From contig CAWBLU010000003.1 of the NCBI GenBank assembly GCA_963789725.1, positions 67,170 through 131,169 of the forward strand: DNA of 64,000 nucleotides, read 5' to 3'. The notes below the pieces were generated by a model. That model did no database searches. It had not been told where the DNA came from and saw only the letters and a program-made list of their open reading frames with translations. This document shows positions 173 through 24,286 of this stretch, piece after piece. Every line of letters begins with the position of its first letter. Within the stretch, counting starts at the first letter, position 1. The position numbers and the translations under genes are program-made. Origin of the DNA: an uncultured Chloroflexia bacterium (GTDB lineage Bacteria; Chloroflexota; Limnocylindria; Limnocylindrales; CSP1-4).

Positions 173-1554
173 GCGACGAACTCGGCGATCCGGTAGAGGC
201 CGTCGTTGTCGCCGCCGGCTCGAGCCGGCGGATGGGAGGCCGGGACAAGCTCACGGTCGAACTGGAGGGGCGGCCCGTCCTGCGGTGGTCGGTAGAAGCG
301 CTGGCGGCCGCGGGGATCGTGCGGATCGTCATCGCAGCCTCGCCGAACCGCGTTGCCGAGATCGCTGCCGAACGCTGGTTGCCCGAGTCGGTCGTGGCTG
401 TGGTCGCGGGCGGCGAGCGGCGCCAGGAGTCCGTGGCCGCCGGCGTCGCGGCGCTGGCGGCAGCCGACCCGGGTGAACCGCAGCCGGTGACGACTGCGAC
501 CTCAGCCGCGCCCGGCCCCGCTGCCCGAGCGCCGCGGATGCCTGCCCCTACCGGTAAGCACGACCCGGTCATTCTCGTCCACGATGCCGCGCGGCCGCTG
601 GCCAGCCCTGAGCTCATACGGGCGGTGGCCCGGGCGGCGGCGGCTCACGGAGCCGCAATCCCGGTCGTGCCGGTCACGGAGACGCTGAAGCGGCTCGACG
701 GCGACCTGATCGGCGTAACGGTGGACCGCACGGACGTGGTCGCCGCCCAGACGCCCCAGGGACTGCGCCGCAGCCTGCTCGAGGCAGCCTACGCCAGGTA
801 TTCTCCCGACGGCCCGGAAACCTGGACCGACGAAGCGTCGCTGCTCGAGGCTTGTAGAATCCCGGTCCATGCAATCAGCGGCGAAATGACCAACCTCAAA
901 GTGACGGTCCCTGCCGACCTCGAGCGCGCAAGCGCTCTCCTCGCGGGCGGGCTCGTGCCCGGTCGCCAGGCTTCATCGGAGGCCGTGTCTCGGTCTTCCC
1001 ATCTCGCGGCCGTGGGGCGAATCGGGCTCGGCACCGACAACCACCCGTTCGGGTCAGGAGAGCCGTTGGCGCTCGGCGGGATCCGGATCGAAGGAGCGCC
1101 GCGGCTGGCCGGCCATTCGGACGGTGACGTCGCACTCCACGCCGTGGCCGATGCCCTTCTGGGGGCGGCCGGCCTGGGTGACCTCGGCAGGCTCTTCCCC
1201 GCGGATCGCACCACGCCGCGGGGGGTCGACAGCCGCCTGCTGCTGGCAGGCGTCGCCGATAAGGTGCGCGCGGCCGGATGGGTCGCGTCCAACGTGGACG
1301 TCACCATCGTGGCCGCCCGACCGCAGCTGGCGGCGCTTCTGCCCGCGATGGAGGAGGCGATCGCCTCCGCCCTGGGTGTGCAGGCATCGGCCGTCAACGT
1401 CAAGGCTTCAACGGGCAACCTCGGGGGTTCGGAGGGGGCGGGCCGATCCATATCGGCGAGCGCGATTGCGTGGCTCGTGCCTGCGGCGGTGGCCGTCGCT
1501 GGGGACGCGACCCTGGACGCCGGCCCTGCGCCATCCGGGGAGGGGAGCATATGA
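169..1554 (+). CDS. ispDF: Bifunctional 2-C-methyl-D-erythritol 4-phosphate cytidylyltransferase / 2-C-methyl-D-erythritol 2,4-cyclodiphosphate synthase (IspD-IspF fusion)
   Basis: The N-terminal half carries the IspD motif VVAAGSSRRMGG..DKL. The C-terminal half carries the IspF motifs IGLGTDNHPF and HSDGDVALHA. It is one continuous ORF with high in-frame GC3. Confidence 0.9.
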   Translation: MSDELGDPVEAVVVAAGSSRRMGGRDKLTVELEGRPVLRWSVEALAAAGIVRIVIAASPNRVAEIAAERWLPESVVAVVAGGERRQESVAAGVAALAAADPGEPQPVTTATSAAPGPAARAPRMPAPTGKHDPVILVHDAARPLASPELIRAVARAAAAHGAAIPVVPVTETLKRLDGDLIGVTVDRTDVVAAQTPQGLRRSLLEAAYARYSPDGPETWTDEASLLEACRIPVHAISGEMTNLKVTVPADLERASALLAGGLVPGRQASSEAVSRSSHLAAVGRIGLGTDNHPFGSGEPLALGGIRIEGAPRLAGHSDGDVALHAVADALLGAAGLGDLGRLFPADRTTPRGVDSRLLLAGVADKVRAAGWVASNVDVTIVAARPQLAALLPAMEEAIASALGVQASAVNVKASTGNLGGSEGAGRSISASAIAWLVPAAVAVAGDATLDAGPAPSGEGSI

Positions 1555-2948
1555 CGCTGCGCCTGCATGACACCATGGCTGGGGCCGTTCGCGATTTCGT
1601 GCCCCTCGAGCCCGGCCACGTCCGCATATACAGCTGCGGTCCAACGGTGTACGGGCCCGCCCACGTCGGCAACTTCCGATCGTTCATCTTCGCCGACCTG
1701 CTCGTCCGCTATCTGCGCTACAAGGGCCTCCGAGTTACGTGGGTCATGAATGTGACCGACGTGGACGACAAGATCATCCGCGCCTCCAGGACCGAAAGCG
1801 TCTCGATCGGCGAGATCTCGGATCGCTACCTCGCGCTGTTCATGGCGGATATGGCGACTCTGTCGCTGACCGTTCCGGACGTGATGCCGCGCGCCACGGA
1901 CCACATCCCGCAGATGGTCGAGTTGATTCAGAAGCTGCTCGACGGTGGTCACGCCTATCGAACGGACGACGGGTCGATCTTCTTCCGGATTTCCTCCTGG
2001 CCCGACTACGGCCGGCTGGCCCGCATCGACCCTGAGGGGATGCGGGTCGGAGAGCGCGTCGAAGCGGACGAATATGCCAAGGATGACGTCCGCGATTTCG
2101 CCCTGTGGAAAGGCCCCAAGCCGGACGAGCCGAGCTGGGATACCAGCATCGGCCCGGGTCGCCCAGGCTGGCACATCGAATGCTCGGCCATGAGCATGGC
2201 CTACCTAGGGTCCTCCTTCGACATCCACACCGGCGGCGTGGACCTCATCTTCCCGCACCATCAGGACGAGATCGCCCAGAGTGAGGCCGCCACGGGACAG
2301 CCGTTCGTCCACGACTGGATGCATTGCGCCCATCTGCAAATGGGCGGCCAGAAGATGGCCAAATCAACCGGAAATATCGCCCGTGTCGCGGAGACGCTCG
2401 AGGGCGGCGTCTCGGCCCGAGCGCTGCGGCTGGCCCTGATGTCTGCCCACTACCGCACCGCCCTTTCCTTCGGTGACGATTCCCTCCAGGCGGCCGGTTC
2501 GGCGGTCGATCGCCTGGAGGCGCTGATGGCTGCGCTGGCGGTGTACCGCTCGGATGGCCCGGACGACGTATCCTTGCCGTCCGCATTGGTTGGCGCCCGG
2601 ACGGCCTTCGAGGCCGCCCTCGACGACGACCTCAACATCTCTCCCGCACTGGCCGCGGTCTTCGATCTGATCCGCGATCTCAACCGCCGCATCGACGGCC
2701 GAACGCTGTCGACGGCCGACGCAGGCCGGGCAATCGCCTTCATCCGAGATCTCGACCGGGTCCTGGGTATCGCTCCGGCAGCCGATGAAGCCCTCGAACC
2801 GGATCTCCAGAAACTACTGGACGAGCGCGCCGCCGCCCGCGCCAATAAGGAATGGGCGGCATCGGACCGCCTCCGGATCGCCCTTGCCGACCGCGGCGTC
2901 CTGGTAGAAGACACGCGCGACGGCCAACGCTGGCGCCGCGCCGAGTAA
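1551..2948 (+). CDS. cysS: Cysteine--tRNA ligase
   Basis: The class I HIGH region appears as CGPTVYGPAHVGNFRSF, and a KMSKS-like KMAKS motif is present. The ATG at 1551 overlaps the ispDF stop (ATGA). The ORF-track start at 1278 is an upstream in-frame artefact. Confidence 0.9.
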   Translation: MTLRLHDTMAGAVRDFVPLEPGHVRIYSCGPTVYGPAHVGNFRSFIFADLLVRYLRYKGLRVTWVMNVTDVDDKIIRASRTESVSIGEISDRYLALFMADMATLSLTVPDVMPRATDHIPQMVELIQKLLDGGHAYRTDDGSIFFRISSWPDYGRLARIDPEGMRVGERVEADEYAKDDVRDFALWKGPKPDEPSWDTSIGPGRPGWHIECSAMSMAYLGSSFDIHTGGVDLIFPHHQDEIAQSEAATGQPFVHDWMHCAHLQMGGQKMAKSTGNIARVAETLEGGVSARALRLALMSAHYRTALSFGDDSLQAAGSAVDRLEALMAALAVYRSDGPDDVSLPSALVGARTAFEAALDDDLNISPALAAVFDLIRDLNRRIDGRTLSTADAGRAIAFIRDLDRVLGIAPAADEALEPDLQKLLDERAAARANKEWAASDRLRIALADRGVLVEDTRDGQRWRRAE

Positions 2949-2997
2949 GCCCCGGGCCGCGACCTCGCGCGGCCGAAACACACGAACGGACCGCACC

Positions 2998-5490
2998 TTG
3001 CCTGACCATCGACACAAGCCACGGGACGACAACTTCGGCGGGCGCAAGCCCGGCGGCAAGAAGCCCCGTCCCGACGGCCATCGACCTCAGGGCCCCCGAT
3101 CGGACGGGCCGGGCTTCGAGGGCCCTCGGCGGACCGGCGGACCGGCTAGGTTCGAGGGCCGCGGCGGCCCGCCGCGCGAAGGCCCGGGGCCCGGCGGCTT
3201 TCGCCCGGACGGTGGCCGGTTCGAAGCGCCCAGATCGTTCGGGCGGCCGGGTGGATTCCAGGGCGGCGGGGGCCCATCTCGTGAGGGTCAGCGGCCGGGC
3301 GGGCCACCGCCCGAAGGCGGATTCGAGGGGCCCAGGCCGTTCGGCCGGCCGGGCGGCGGCAGGTCGTTCGGACCTCGACCGGCCGGCCCGGGCCCAAGAG
3401 GATCACGCTCCGAGGGTCGGCCCAGTGATTTCGGTTCCGGCGGGCGGTCGGGCGGCTTCACCGGACCCCGCCCGGGCGGCTTCCGGCCGGAAGGCTCTCG
3501 CCCAGACTTCGGACGAGGAGCGCCCGATCGCGAAGGCGGCGCGCCCCATGCCCCGCGCCGCGAGTGGCAGCCCCGCGATGCCTGGACGCCCAGGCCGCCA
3601 CGACCCTACGGCTCCTCGGGCGGTGGTCAGCGCGATCGCTTCGGCGACGAGCCCCGCGATGGCACCGACACCTTCGGCCCGGGCCGCCCGCCCGGCCGCC
3701 CCGCCTCGCGTCCCGGCTTTGGGCCGCGTCATCAGGGCTTGCGGCCTCACGACGAGTCATTCCGCCCGCGCACCGAGGACGGACCCGCCAGCGAGTCTCC
3801 GGACGAGTCTCGACAGCAGCACGGCCCGGAGCGTCGCCCGGGTAGCTTCTCGGGCCAGAGGCGGGGCAGTTTCGGAGGATCGAGGCCCGGTGGATTCTCA
3901 GGACCGCCCCGGAACGGCTTCAGGGGCGGCCGGCCCGGCTTTAGCGAGCGCCCGGGACTCGGGCCCAGGCCCGACTTCCAACCGGGAGCCGGCCCGGAGC
4001 GAGAAGAGCAAGAACGGTTCGGTGGCGCCGAACCAGACGAACAGGTCCTGAGGCCGGACACGGAACAGATCGGACACGCCGGCCAGGATGAATTCGACGC
4101 CGCGCCGGCCGACGAGGGTGGAGCCGAGTCGAGTGCCGCCGGCTCCTCGGCCGCGCCCGAGCTCCGGCCCGCGCCGAGCGGACGACCTACCGGCCCCAGG
4201 CCGCCGAGGCCGTCGCCACGCCCTGATTACCGCGCCCGTTCCGGCGGGTTCGGCGATCGCCGCGGTATCGGGCCGGGCGGTTCCGCCGGGGCGCCCTGGT
4301 CACGACCCTTCGCGGGGCCGCCGCCGGCGGATCTGCTGGGCGAGGACCAGGAACTGGTCGCCGGCCGCCATCCGGTCGAGGAAGCGTTCATCGCCCACCG
4401 CAAGGCCGTTCGATTGCTCGTCGTTCCGCAACGCCGCCTCGCCCTCGAGAAACTGGTTCTCCACGCCACGAACCTGCGCATCCCCATCGTCGAGGTTGAA
4501 GGCGGGACGCTGACGTCGCTGGCCGGGTTCGACGGTCACCAGGGGATCGCCCTGGTCACCGATCGCCGCCAGTTCGCCGGCCTGGACGACATCCTCGCGC
4601 GGGCCATCGAACGCAAGGAGCCGCCGTTCGTCCTCGTCCTTGACTCGCTCGAGGATCCACAGAACTTCGGCTCGCTGCTGCGGACCGCCGAGGCGTCGGG
4701 AGTCCACGGCGTCATCTATCCGGTCCGGCGCCAGGCGCCTCTGTCGGCGGTCGCCGTCAAGGCATCGGCCGGAGCCGTGGAGCATCTCTTGCTGGTGCCG
4801 GTCGAAGACCTGGCCGAAGCGCTTACGGACCTCCATGTGCGGGGCTTGCGAGTGATCGGCTCGGACGCCGACGCCGCGCTGACCGCCAGGCAGGCCGACC
4901 TTCGGGGGCCCGTCGTGGTCGTCGTCGGTAGCGAAGGGCAGGGTCTCGGGCCGGCGGTCAGGCGCCGCTGCGACGCGGTGGTCCGCATTCCGATGCGGGG
5001 CCGCATCACCTCACTCAACGCCGCCGTCGCCGGCTCGATCCTTCTATATGAGGCCTCCAGCCAGCGCGGGGGAGACCGCCCAGTCGTCGGTCCCACGCCC
5101 GGAATGGGCGAAGATGCGGCCCGAATCCGCGGGCTCGCCGGCGACGACGCATCGGAGGCCGCACCCGAGCCCCCCCAGCCCGCTTCGGCCGATGGGGCGC
5201 CCGTCGACACGGAGCCGCCTGTCGAGGTCGCGGGGCCGTCGGATGCGGCCCAGACCATCGTGGCCGGTCTCGCCGTCGTTGCCGACGACCTCGCCAAAGC
5301 CCAGGACCGGATCGCCGCCGAAGCGGCGTTCGCTCCCGCTCCGAGTCGGAAGGCTACGCGCCGCAAGGTCGTTCGAACCGACCCCGTCGACCTCGCGCGT
5401 GGCGAGTCCGACTCGGACGCATCGGCGGCGGACGCTCTTCTGCCCGGTACTCAGGCCGTGGACTCAGACGATACCTCGACGGCCGAATGA
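2998..5490 (+). CDS. rlmB: SpoU/TrmH-family 23S rRNA 2'-O-methyltransferase (RlmB-like) with a ~430 aa RGG/FG-rich low-complexity N-terminal extension and a ~130 aa acidic/Ala-rich C-terminal tail
   Basis: The C-terminal domain (about 4330-5040) has TrmH motifs: LVLDSLEDPQNFGSLLRTAEASGVHGV, VVVGSEGQGL and IPMRGRITSLNAAVAGSIL. The same frame is open back to 2998, with high GC3 throughout the Gly/Arg/Pro-rich repeats. Its position after cysS matches yacO (rlmB) in Bacillus. Confidence 0.75.
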   Translation: MPDHRHKPRDDNFGGRKPGGKKPRPDGHRPQGPRSDGPGFEGPRRTGGPARFEGRGGPPREGPGPGGFRPDGGRFEAPRSFGRPGGFQGGGGPSREGQRPGGPPPEGGFEGPRPFGRPGGGRSFGPRPAGPGPRGSRSEGRPSDFGSGGRSGGFTGPRPGGFRPEGSRPDFGRGAPDREGGAPHAPRREWQPRDAWTPRPPRPYGSSGGGQRDRFGDEPRDGTDTFGPGRPPGRPASRPGFGPRHQGLRPHDESFRPRTEDGPASESPDESRQQHGPERRPGSFSGQRRGSFGGSRPGGFSGPPRNGFRGGRPGFSERPGLGPRPDFQPGAGPEREEQERFGGAEPDEQVLRPDTEQIGHAGQDEFDAAPADEGGAESSAAGSSAAPELRPAPSGRPTGPRPPRPSPRPDYRARSGGFGDRRGIGPGGSAGAPWSRPFAGPPPADLLGEDQELVAGRHPVEEAFIAHRKAVRLLVVPQRRLALEKLVLHATNLRIPIVEVEGGTLTSLAGFDGHQGIALVTDRRQFAGLDDILARAIERKEPPFVLVLDSLEDPQNFGSLLRTAEASGVHGVIYPVRRQAPLSAVAVKASAGAVEHLLLVPVEDLAEALTDLHVRGLRVIGSDADAALTARQADLRGPVVVVVGSEGQGLGPAVRRRCDAVVRIPMRGRITSLNAAVAGSILLYEASSQRGGDRPVVGPTPGMGEDAARIRGLAGDDASEAAPEPPQPASADGAPVDTEPPVEVAGPSDAAQTIVAGLAVVADDLAKAQDRIAAEAAFAPAPSRKATRRKVVRTDPVDLARGESDSDASAADALLPGTQAVDSDDTSTAE
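3100..4320 (+). repeat. Low-complexity coding repeat region (degenerate FGRPGG / RGG / GGFRP units) inside the rlmB ORF
   Basis: The translated sequence shows iterated motifs: GGFRPDGGRFEAPRSFGRPGGFQGGGGP, FEGPRPFGRPGGGRSFGPRP, GGRSGGFTGPRPGGFRPEGSRPDFGRG and SFGGSRPGGFSGPPRNGFRGGRPGF. Confidence 0.6.
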
Positions 5491-5578
5491 CGAAGGGGTT
5501 TCGACCTAGGACTTCGAGCCCTGTCCGATGCGCTCTTTGGCCGTGCGAACTGGCCCGCAAGGGCCCCCGGGGTCTCGC

Positions 5579-5608
5579 TTGACCGGCGAGGGGCCCAGCC
5601 AATATCAT
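5579..5608 (+). promoter_or_regulatory. Candidate sigma-70-type promoter for the tRNA-Thr/Tyr/Thr-tuf transcript
   Basis: A TTGACC -35 element is followed by an 18-nt spacer and a TATCAT -10 element (5603-5608), about 45 nt upstream of the first tRNA. This is pattern-based only. Confidence 0.3.
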
Positions 5609-5652
5609 TCGCGGGCGCCCAAGGGTCTTAGCGTTAGCATGCCTTTGCGCCC

Positions 5653-5728
5653 GCCGACGTAGCTCAATTGGTAGAGCAGCGGTTTTGTAAACCGCCGGTT
5701 CCGGGTTCGAGTCCCGTCGTCGGCTCCA
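5653..5728 (+). tRNA. tRNA-Thr (anticodon UGU)
   Basis: Cloverleaf: acceptor GCCGACG/CGTCGGC, D-arm GCTCAATTGGTAGAGC, anticodon stem GCGGT/ACCGC with loop TTTGTAA, T-loop TTCGAGT. One C-T mismatch in the T-stem. CCA is encoded. Confidence 0.8.
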
Positions 5729-5782
5729 ACTGAAGAAGTCAGCCGTTGTAGGGGAACCCACCGCAGCGGCTGGCAGTCTCGT

Positions 5783-5867
5783 GGGTAGGTTGAGCAGGTG
5801 GTGAGCTCAGCTGACTGTAAATCAGCCGCCTTCGGCTGTAGAGGTTCGATTCCTCTCCTGCCCACCA
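5783..5867 (+). tRNA. tRNA-Tyr (anticodon GUA), class II with a long variable arm
   Basis: Acceptor GGGTAGG/CCTGCCC, anticodon loop CTGTAAA, long variable arm, T-arm AGAGG-TTCGATT-CCTCT. CCA is encoded. Confidence 0.8.
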
Positions 5868-5891
5868 CCTTGGTATCCGACCCGGTCTCGG

Positions 5892-5967
5892 GCCCTCATA
5901 GCTCAGCTGGCAGAGCGCGTCCTTGGTAAGGACGAGGTCATCGGTTCAAGTCCGATTGAGGGCTCCA
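5892..5967 (+). tRNA. tRNA-Thr (anticodon GGU)
   Basis: Acceptor GCCCTCA/TGAGGGC, D-arm GCTCAGCTGGCAGAGC, anticodon stem CGTCC/GGACG with loop TTGGTAA, T-arm ATCGG-TTCAAGT-CCGAT. CCA is encoded. Confidence 0.85.
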
Positions 5968-6006: not shown

Positions 6007-7212
<1,206 letters not shown>

Positions 7213-7512: not shown

Positions 7513-7588
7513 AGGCGCCTAGCTCAATTGGTAGAGCACTGGTCTCCAAAACCAGCGGTTGTGGGTTCGAGTCCCGCGGCGCCTGCCA
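7513..7588 (+). tRNA. tRNA-Trp (anticodon CCA)
   Basis: Acceptor AGGCGCC/GGCGCCT, anticodon stem CTGGT/ACCAG with loop CTCCAAA, T-arm GTGGG-TTCGAGT-CCCGC. CCA is encoded. It lies between rpmG and secE, as in many Gram-positive bacteria. Confidence 0.85.
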
Positions 7589-23044: not shown

Positions 23045-23080
23045 TCAGTCCACCCAGCCCGCAGCAGGAGCGAGGGAGTA

Positions 23081-24286
<1,206 letters not shown>

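Follow-up and report, generated by a model that had tools for sequence, protein, structure and literature searches.

A class-wide Arg-Pro/Phe-Gly-rich head, predicted to be disordered, and an acidic tail flank an RlmB-type rRNA methyltransferase of Limnocylindria

RlmB of E. coli (YjfH), the enzyme responsible for Gm2251, consists of about 245 residues with no flanks on either side of its two-domain core, and a 2022 review of the SPOUT enzymes gives RlmB only an N-domain of 81 residues, as compared to an N-terminal region of 241 residues listed for MRM1 (PMC9508554). The mitochondrial MRM1/Pet56 shares its SPOUT clade with RlmB and introduces the same type of modification; its enlarged N-terminal region, however, includes a targeting sequence and has no reported G/R/P-rich repeats, and it is by description that it is set apart here. 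Fibrillarin/Nop1, also an rRNA ribose 2'-O-methylase, carries an N-terminal Gly/Arg/Phe-rich disordered head, the Gly/Arg-rich (GAR) domain, which binds rRNA and drives self-association (PMC11599257). Since the archaeal counterpart lacks it, this head is a lineage-specific addition. Basic disordered appendages that bind RNA non-specifically are also found in the C-terminal half of RNase E and in the tails of DEAD-box helicases, and the RNase E tail of Caulobacter drives RNA-protein bodies; these belong to other enzyme families and have other motifs. The gene treated here, rlmB of a bacterium of the class Limnocylindria (Chloroflexota), lies in a stretch of 64 kb that was analysed as a whole (the window, to which coordinates refer unless stated otherwise). 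Its product shares the equivalog family, the two-domain core and the SPOUT motif residues with E. coli RlmB and adds to this core 450 N-terminal residues (the head) and 140 C-terminal residues (the tail) that are predicted to be disordered. Neither the RlmB enzyme nor the general strategy of equipping an RNA enzyme with a basic disordered arm is new; what sets the present case apart is the unusually large size of the extension, its conservation throughout the class, its distinct motif pattern and the additional acidic tail.

The rlmB open reading frame (ORF) is complete and runs from a TTG start to a stop codon at 5488-5490 (2998..5490, plus strand, as are cysS and all parts of the gene described below), encoding 830 residues, and a protein in public data (P0001, 830 residues) is 100% identical to it. 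Pfam places SpoU_sub_bind (PF08032) at residues 453-525 and SpoU_methylase (PF00588), the trefoil-knot domain, at residues 544-684, and the catalytic unit as a whole, residues 451-690 (4348..5067), covers positions 2-240 of the 240 positions of the NCBIfam RlmB equivalog TIGR00186 with 188 bits (cutoff 160.15), in agreement with the RlmB-type enzyme named in the initial annotation. Of all solved structures, that of E. coli RlmB (1GZ0) comes closest (E = 6e-33). N556 and R562 do not vary in an alignment of 57 sequences, and E646, S672 and N674 hardly do (conserved in at least 90%); presumably these are the residues of SPOUT motif 1 (N556/R562), motif 2 (E646) and motif 3 (S672/N674), matching the catalytic residues of the E. 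coli enzyme. AlphaFold, supplied with the same alignment, models the catalytic core with confidence (predicted local distance difference test score, pLDDT, mostly 70-97). By sequence, residues 451-690 are a standard, intact RlmB core in which every RlmB feature that could be looked for was found, and by family the protein is a 23S rRNA G2251 2'-O-methyltransferase, for which methylation of G2251 is predicted.

This core makes up 240 of the 830 residues. The earlier description of the extension as unusual holds in comparison to the RlmBs of E. coli and Bacillus and to all solved SPOUT relatives, every one of which has at most 288 residues (1GZ0: 253), but not within Limnocylindria, where it is the rule, and analogues exist in Firmicutes. 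The head is composed of 23% Gly, 18% Pro, 15% Arg and 6% Phe (28 Phe in residues 1-450), and the disorder ascribed to it earlier is borne out by prediction, as AlphaFold assigns pLDDT values below 50 and no secondary structure to residues 1-440. The absence of predicted structure, the low hydrophobic content and a composition that is kept while the sequence drifts are together what is expected of an intrinsically disordered region.

Is the DNA upstream of the catalytic domain translated at all? It could be imagined that the real start lies just before the domain and that the preceding 1.3 kb are an untranslated leader, free of stop codons by chance. Upstream of the domain 450 codons pass without a stop, for which the local base composition gives a chance of about 0.003, which is not negligible in DNA of 76% GC, and a neighbouring reading frame holds only one stop across the extension. 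Moreover, gene callers disagree on the start among relatives, and the strong third-position GC bias initially put forward as coding evidence does not hold up: with GC contents of 0.70-0.82, 0.62-0.84 and 0.72-0.80 at codon positions 1, 2 and 3 (local GC content 0.71-0.78) the frames cannot be told apart in this way, as the codons for Gly, Pro and Arg raise the GC content at each of the three positions. Against an untranslated leader speaks, however, that the only in-frame ATG, GTG or TTG codons before residue 470 are those at residues 1 and 248, with none in residues 249-470, so that a protein beginning just before the domain is unavailable. A start near 4300, which would have spoken against the extension, has no canonical start codon to use. 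No promoter-like site was found in 2700-5570 either, and the idea that transcription or translation begins within the gene, close to the domain, was rejected on these two grounds.

Comparison with relatives provides more direct evidence. In DNA alignments with two orthologous contigs (L001 and L002) 14 of 18 and 20 of 23 gaps, respectively, are multiples of three, and the non-triplet gaps fall into the intergenic spacer or form compensating pairs. In the same alignments the mismatch rates of the head at codon positions 1, 2 and 3 are 0.23/0.22/0.45 (L001) and 0.33/0.32/0.53 (L002), to be compared with 0.07/0.01/0.40 in the domain and 0.25/0.31/0.46 in the tail. The ratio of nonsynonymous to synonymous substitution rates (dN/dS) against ten orthologues is 0.23-0.34 in the head, about 0.04 in the domain and 0.31-0.57 in the tail; these ratios derive from a protein-guided alignment and are perhaps biased downward, whereas the DNA-based mismatch rates are independent of that alignment. 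Moderate purifying selection acts on both flanks. The start itself is conserved: 20 close orthologues have TTG or GTG at the same position followed by PDHRHKPG, and the first 30 residues form an island, (M)PDHRHKPxDDxxGGRKPGGKKPRP, of about 0.7 identity (2998..3087). A GGA core lies 7-10 nucleotides upstream of the start, much as for other genes of the window. The depletion of the dipeptide PP in the encoded sequence likewise speaks for translation. An ORF of 399 residues in an alternative frame (2852..4051) was considered as the real gene and rejected: it runs into the end of cysS, and it is the third position of the 2998 frame, and not its own, at which most substitutions are found. Taken together with a frame that is open in 77 of 80 related genomes and with the many relatives in which the rlmB start overlaps the cysS stop, the comparative data exclude an untranslated leader, which hardly deserves any credence, and indicate that residues 1-450 are translated in the RlmB frame from a start at or near 2998, as initially proposed.

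How widespread is this architecture? Of the 430 relatives found in a scan with one genome per species, the best 80, all Limnocylindria-type metagenome-assembled genomes, were analysed. Between the cysS stop and the RlmB domain lie 172-510 codons (median 303), and in 77 of the 80 at least 90% of this stretch has no interruption of the RlmB frame, so that absence from all relatives, named at the outset as an argument against the extension, is not what is found. The frame is interrupted within the extension at three loci, one of which contains N (L025) and two of which come from long-read assemblies (L006 and L059); these interruptions are likely assembly frameshifts rather than pseudogenes. In a more distant group there is an overlap of 4 or 8 nucleotides between the rlmB start and the cysS stop. 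A word-based protein search found 120 homologues of 456-1078 residues with heads and tails of the same composition, and those among them that are named belong to Limnocylindrales or Chloroflexota. According to these comparisons the order of basic head, enzyme and acidic tail is conserved across the class Limnocylindria, and the flanks drift quickly in length and sequence, whereas their composition, the spacing of Arg and a small number of short islands persist. In one of the close relatives (L008, CAVTDS010000004.1), labelled 'Bryobacterales bacterium', the RlmB domain is 94% identical to that of the window; the label is likely wrong and the genome probably that of a close relative of the source.

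Some homologues in the databases seem to have short heads, with an apparent N-terminal extension of 87-137 residues and a protein length of 456-520 residues. As the frame is open over its whole length in their DNA, they were rejected as proof of a dispensable head, and the lengths are underestimates. In four such loci (L083-L086), for example, the frame is fully open from cysS to the domain, reaching back to a conserved TTG/GTG start, yet the caller picked an internal ATG, and in two of them (L083 and L084, positions 2219-2833) it also made a spurious ORF of 204 residues in another frame. Annotations of these RlmBs should be read with caution, as gene callers often start them too late, at an ATG inside the frame, and predict spurious ORFs in the neighbouring frame; database lengths therefore understate the extension.

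Within the head several segments can be distinguished. Residues 1-340 (2998..4017, net charge +22) form a basic G/P/R/F-rich region, predicted to be disordered, with RP/PRP and FG/GF motifs and evenly spaced Arg and aromatic residues. Embedded in it is a conserved Trp-containing island, residues 181-210 (3538..3627), APRREWQPRDAWTPRPPRPYG, with an identity of 0.62-0.63 and an occupancy of 0.94-0.96, the motif of which (REWQPRDAWTPRPPRPYG) is also visible in L083 and L085. An acidic, Ala-rich and poorly conserved linker follows at residues 341-395 (4018..4182, net charge -10), and a conserved basic Pro-rich segment, SPRPDYRARSGGFGDRRG...PWSRPFAGPPPADLLGED, leads up to the domain at residues 396-450 (4183..4347, net charge +4, identity 0.46-0.77), in which R408, P409, R436 and L446 are nearly invariant. 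Conservation is confined to residues 1-30, 181-210 and 406-450; elsewhere identity is poor.

The initial annotation had likened the head to RNA-binding RGG tails and described degenerate FGRPGG/RGG/GGFRP repeats. The RGG label is not supported by the sequence, as none of the four patterns di-RGG, tri-RGG, di-RG and tri-RG (spacers of 0-4 residues) occurs in residues 1-450, where RGG is found twice and RG about five to six times. Relative to composition RG is depleted (5 observed, 14.5 expected, z = -3.1) and RP enriched instead (24 observed, 10.9 expected, z = +4.8), as is PR, and the dipeptides PP, FP and RR are depleted. Of the properties that define a GAR domain the head is Gly/Arg-rich and predicted to be disordered, but it has neither clustered repeats nor an over-representation of RG. 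Its Arg-Pro/Phe-Gly pattern could serve as a comparison point for RGG. As for the repeats, FGRPGG and GGFRP each occur twice, as had been noticed, but they do not amount to a repeat array: since the DNA of the extension has no tandem repeats beyond trivial matches of 8-12 nucleotides and the autocorrelation of the protein no clear period (best lags 28, z = 3.1, and 10 and 20, z = 1.9), a loose motif pattern is the better description. Arg residues are spaced evenly along the head (coefficient of variation 0.50 as compared to 0.89 in shuffled sequences), and so are aromatic residues (0.53 as compared to 0.91, p about 4e-4). Across 68 homologues the median ratio of observed to expected dipeptides is 0.48 for RG and 2.28 for RP, and the median z of the spacing is -2.3 for Arg and -1.3 for aromatic residues. 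Such an arrangement of evenly distributed Arg and aromatic contacts in a flexible spacer corresponds, judged from the sequence, to a sticker-and-spacer layout.

The acidic, Ala-rich C-terminal tail seen initially is present as well. It comprises 140 residues (691-830, 5068..5487), is rich in Ala (22%), Asp (13%) and Pro (11%) and has a net charge of -14. Outside the catalytic core a single element of secondary structure is predicted, a helix of 28 residues in this tail (749-776, 5242..5325), where blocks of 10 residues in the AlphaFold model have a mean pLDDT of 61-79 (residues 751-780). The sequence of the helical segment is poorly conserved, and the segment is usually present. Close to the C-terminus, in an acidic context, lies the short linear motif [DE][DE]x-LLPG, in the window protein ADALLPG at residues 811-817 (5428..5448), of which P816 is nearly invariant. 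The LLPG motif was found in 73 of the 120 homologues as compared to 2 of 120 in a control window, and it looks like a docking motif for a partner. A fuller form, [DE][DE]x-LLPG-[GSA]P, is seen 10-25 residues from the C-terminus, also within the last 60 residues of the homologues P0002-P0088.

Extended RlmBs are not restricted to Limnocylindria. A profile search of 1.8 billion representatives found ordinary RlmBs of about 250 residues just outside the Limnocylindria clade and, in addition, RlmBs with basic, aromatic-containing repeat heads of 100-260 residues and quite different sequence. The named ones among the latter belong to Firmicutes; in these the RlmB core follows 160-260 residues of basic, aromatic-containing low-complexity sequence, for example in the cultured Heliophilum fasciatum (WP_243116811.1, 478 residues), in a Clostridiaceae (HHT77822.1) and in an Eubacteriales bacterium (MDD7413943.1), and NCBI annotates the extended proteins plainly as RlmB. 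These heads differ from that of Limnocylindria in their repeat units (SEKPYGGR, EDRFGDRQE, RGGSFRGSDRGPS and APRRYGERREDGP in P0210, P0240, P0245 and P0257); they are shorter, Lys-rich and often made of clear tandem repeats, and the proteins have no acidic C-terminal tail but end 2-12 residues past the domain. The sequences are unrelated, and the heads of Firmicutes and Limnocylindria are probably independent acquisitions.

What could be the function of such a head? The best explanation, to which a probability of roughly 55% is given, is that RlmB is made as a protein of 830 residues, the head of which acts as an RNA-binding tether or chaperone arm. This proposal is based on the composition and patterning of the head, on the recurrence of basic heads on the RlmBs of unrelated bacteria and on the precedent of fibrillarin. 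Briefly, Arg-Pro and Phe-Gly contacts would be well mixed along the head, spaced by Gly and Pro, and the head would probably act as a multivalent arm that binds RNA with low specificity. RlmB-type enzymes act early in 50S assembly, on 23S rRNA that is nascent or unfolded; such an arm would hold the enzyme there and may also assist folding of the rRNA, and the acidic tail with its LLPG motif might temper this binding or recruit a partner. Several points weigh against this proposal: 1) E. coli RlmB works without such an arm; 2) the head as a whole is mildly basic, with a net charge per residue of +0.06 and 40 acidic residues; 3) its length varies about three-fold among relatives; 4) a phmmer search with the head alone yields no match at E <= 1e-3, orthologues included, which is due to the composition correction, and such undetectable homology would fit weak constraint; 5) the source is an uncultured soil organism.

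Some of these points would also be expected if the flanks were translated low-complexity sequence that grew by slippage in GC-rich DNA, was tolerated under weak selection in a genome of 68-70% GC and has no specific function. The codons for Gly, Pro, Arg and Ala are all rich in GC, local GC content amounts to 0.71-0.78, indels are frequent, lengths range widely among relatives (172-510 codons), identity is poor outside of a few islands, the search with the head alone finds nothing, and the evolution of Limnocylindria genomes was reported to be largely mutation-driven (PMC13212565). However, neutral growth predicts a dN/dS of about 1 and not the 0.23-0.34 found in the head, and the third-position excess is also seen in the alignment that was made on the DNA level. 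Furthermore, slippage has left no tandem repeats in the DNA, the spacing of Arg and aromatic residues is non-random across the clade, islands and a C-terminal motif are conserved, no other real gene of this 64-kb window, rich as it is in translation genes, carries head-like sequence, and the independent extensions of the low-GC Firmicutes use different codons. The comparative data weigh against purely neutral growth, and tolerated growth is considered a rather unlikely alternative to a head that tethers the enzyme to rRNA or chaperones it.

Alternatively, the acidic tail and the evenly spaced contacts of Arg and aromatic residues might drive phase separation with rRNA, so that the protein would act as scaffold of a nucleolus-like body for early 50S assembly. 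The long region of predicted disorder, the evenly spaced contacts within a Gly/Pro spacer and the opposite net charges of head and tail would be suitable for such a role, for which fibrillarin again provides a precedent (PMC11599257). This case is purely compositional, however, and precisely the best-validated RNA-condensing pattern, RG/RGG, is depleted; moreover, Pro-rich chains are stiff and often poor condensers. RlmB is normally an enzyme of low abundance and as such more likely to be a client than a scaffold. A condensate scaffold is considered improbable, less probable than tolerated growth.

Equally doubtful, and drawn by analogy, is the idea that the whole class may have converged on the solution of fibrillarin, with an Arg/Gly/aromatic head and an acidic docking tail that would act in a condensate or as rRNA chaperone and with an RP/FG pattern. 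The GAR domain of fibrillarin consists of about 80 residues of RGG/RG repeats, whereas the head described here has 450 residues with RP/PRP and FG motifs and no RGG/RG motif. Fibrillarin has a Rossmann-type fold and depends on guide RNA, whereas RlmB is a SPOUT knot protein and a stand-alone enzyme; the resemblance is an analogy and not homology. If convergence were true, the extensions in Firmicutes would indicate that RlmB in general needs an arm to tether it to RNA, a need so far unrecognised.

Full-text searches of the literature turned up no account of RlmB with a disordered extension, and a recent paper on Limnocylindria genomics does not mention disordered or low-complexity proteins (PMC13212565). 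Bacterial enzymes seldom contain long disordered regions, and here such a region, as predicted, takes up three-fifths of the protein, is under selection and is conserved over a class that is widespread in soil and freshwater. The RlmB of Limnocylindria offers a natural, cloneable test case with which to ask if enzymes of ribosome assembly in bacteria make use of condensates or of disordered arms that bind RNA.

The gene upstream, cysS (1551..2948), is a conserved neighbour, the stop codon of which lies 50 nucleotides before the rlmB start. The gene order is fused ispD/ispF, cysS, rlmB, tRNA-Thr/Tyr/Thr, tuf, tRNA-Trp, nusG and rplK, and the neighbourhood ispDF-cysS-rlmB is kept in the orthologous contigs L001 and L002. 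No gene is located between cysS and rlmB according to the ORF list and Pfam, and mrnC is absent from this slot, as had been stated initially. A remnant of MrnC in residues 1-450 was considered and rejected, as Pfam at E <= 0.1 gives only the two SpoU domains. Just past the cysS stop lies a GC-rich hairpin (2954-2975), in place of which relatives have a different stem-loop; judged by folding energy it is not superior to shuffled sequence (z = -1.0). Further upstream ispD and ispF are fused to a single ORF of 461 residues (169-1554), a fusion also present in L001, L002 and L083-L085. Directly 3' of rlmB follows a cluster of tRNA-Thr(TGT), tRNA-Tyr and tRNA-Thr(GGT) (5579-5967), preceded by the sole promoter-like site of the region (5579-5608), and a tRNA-Trp (7513-7588) is located between tuf and nusG. 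The window contains two copies of tuf, which encodes EF-Tu (6013-7209 and about 23045-24283), on the same strand, 17 kb apart and with identical protein stretches. Many short-read contigs of relatives stop about 0.9-1.8 kb past the RlmB domain, possibly because tuf is duplicated.

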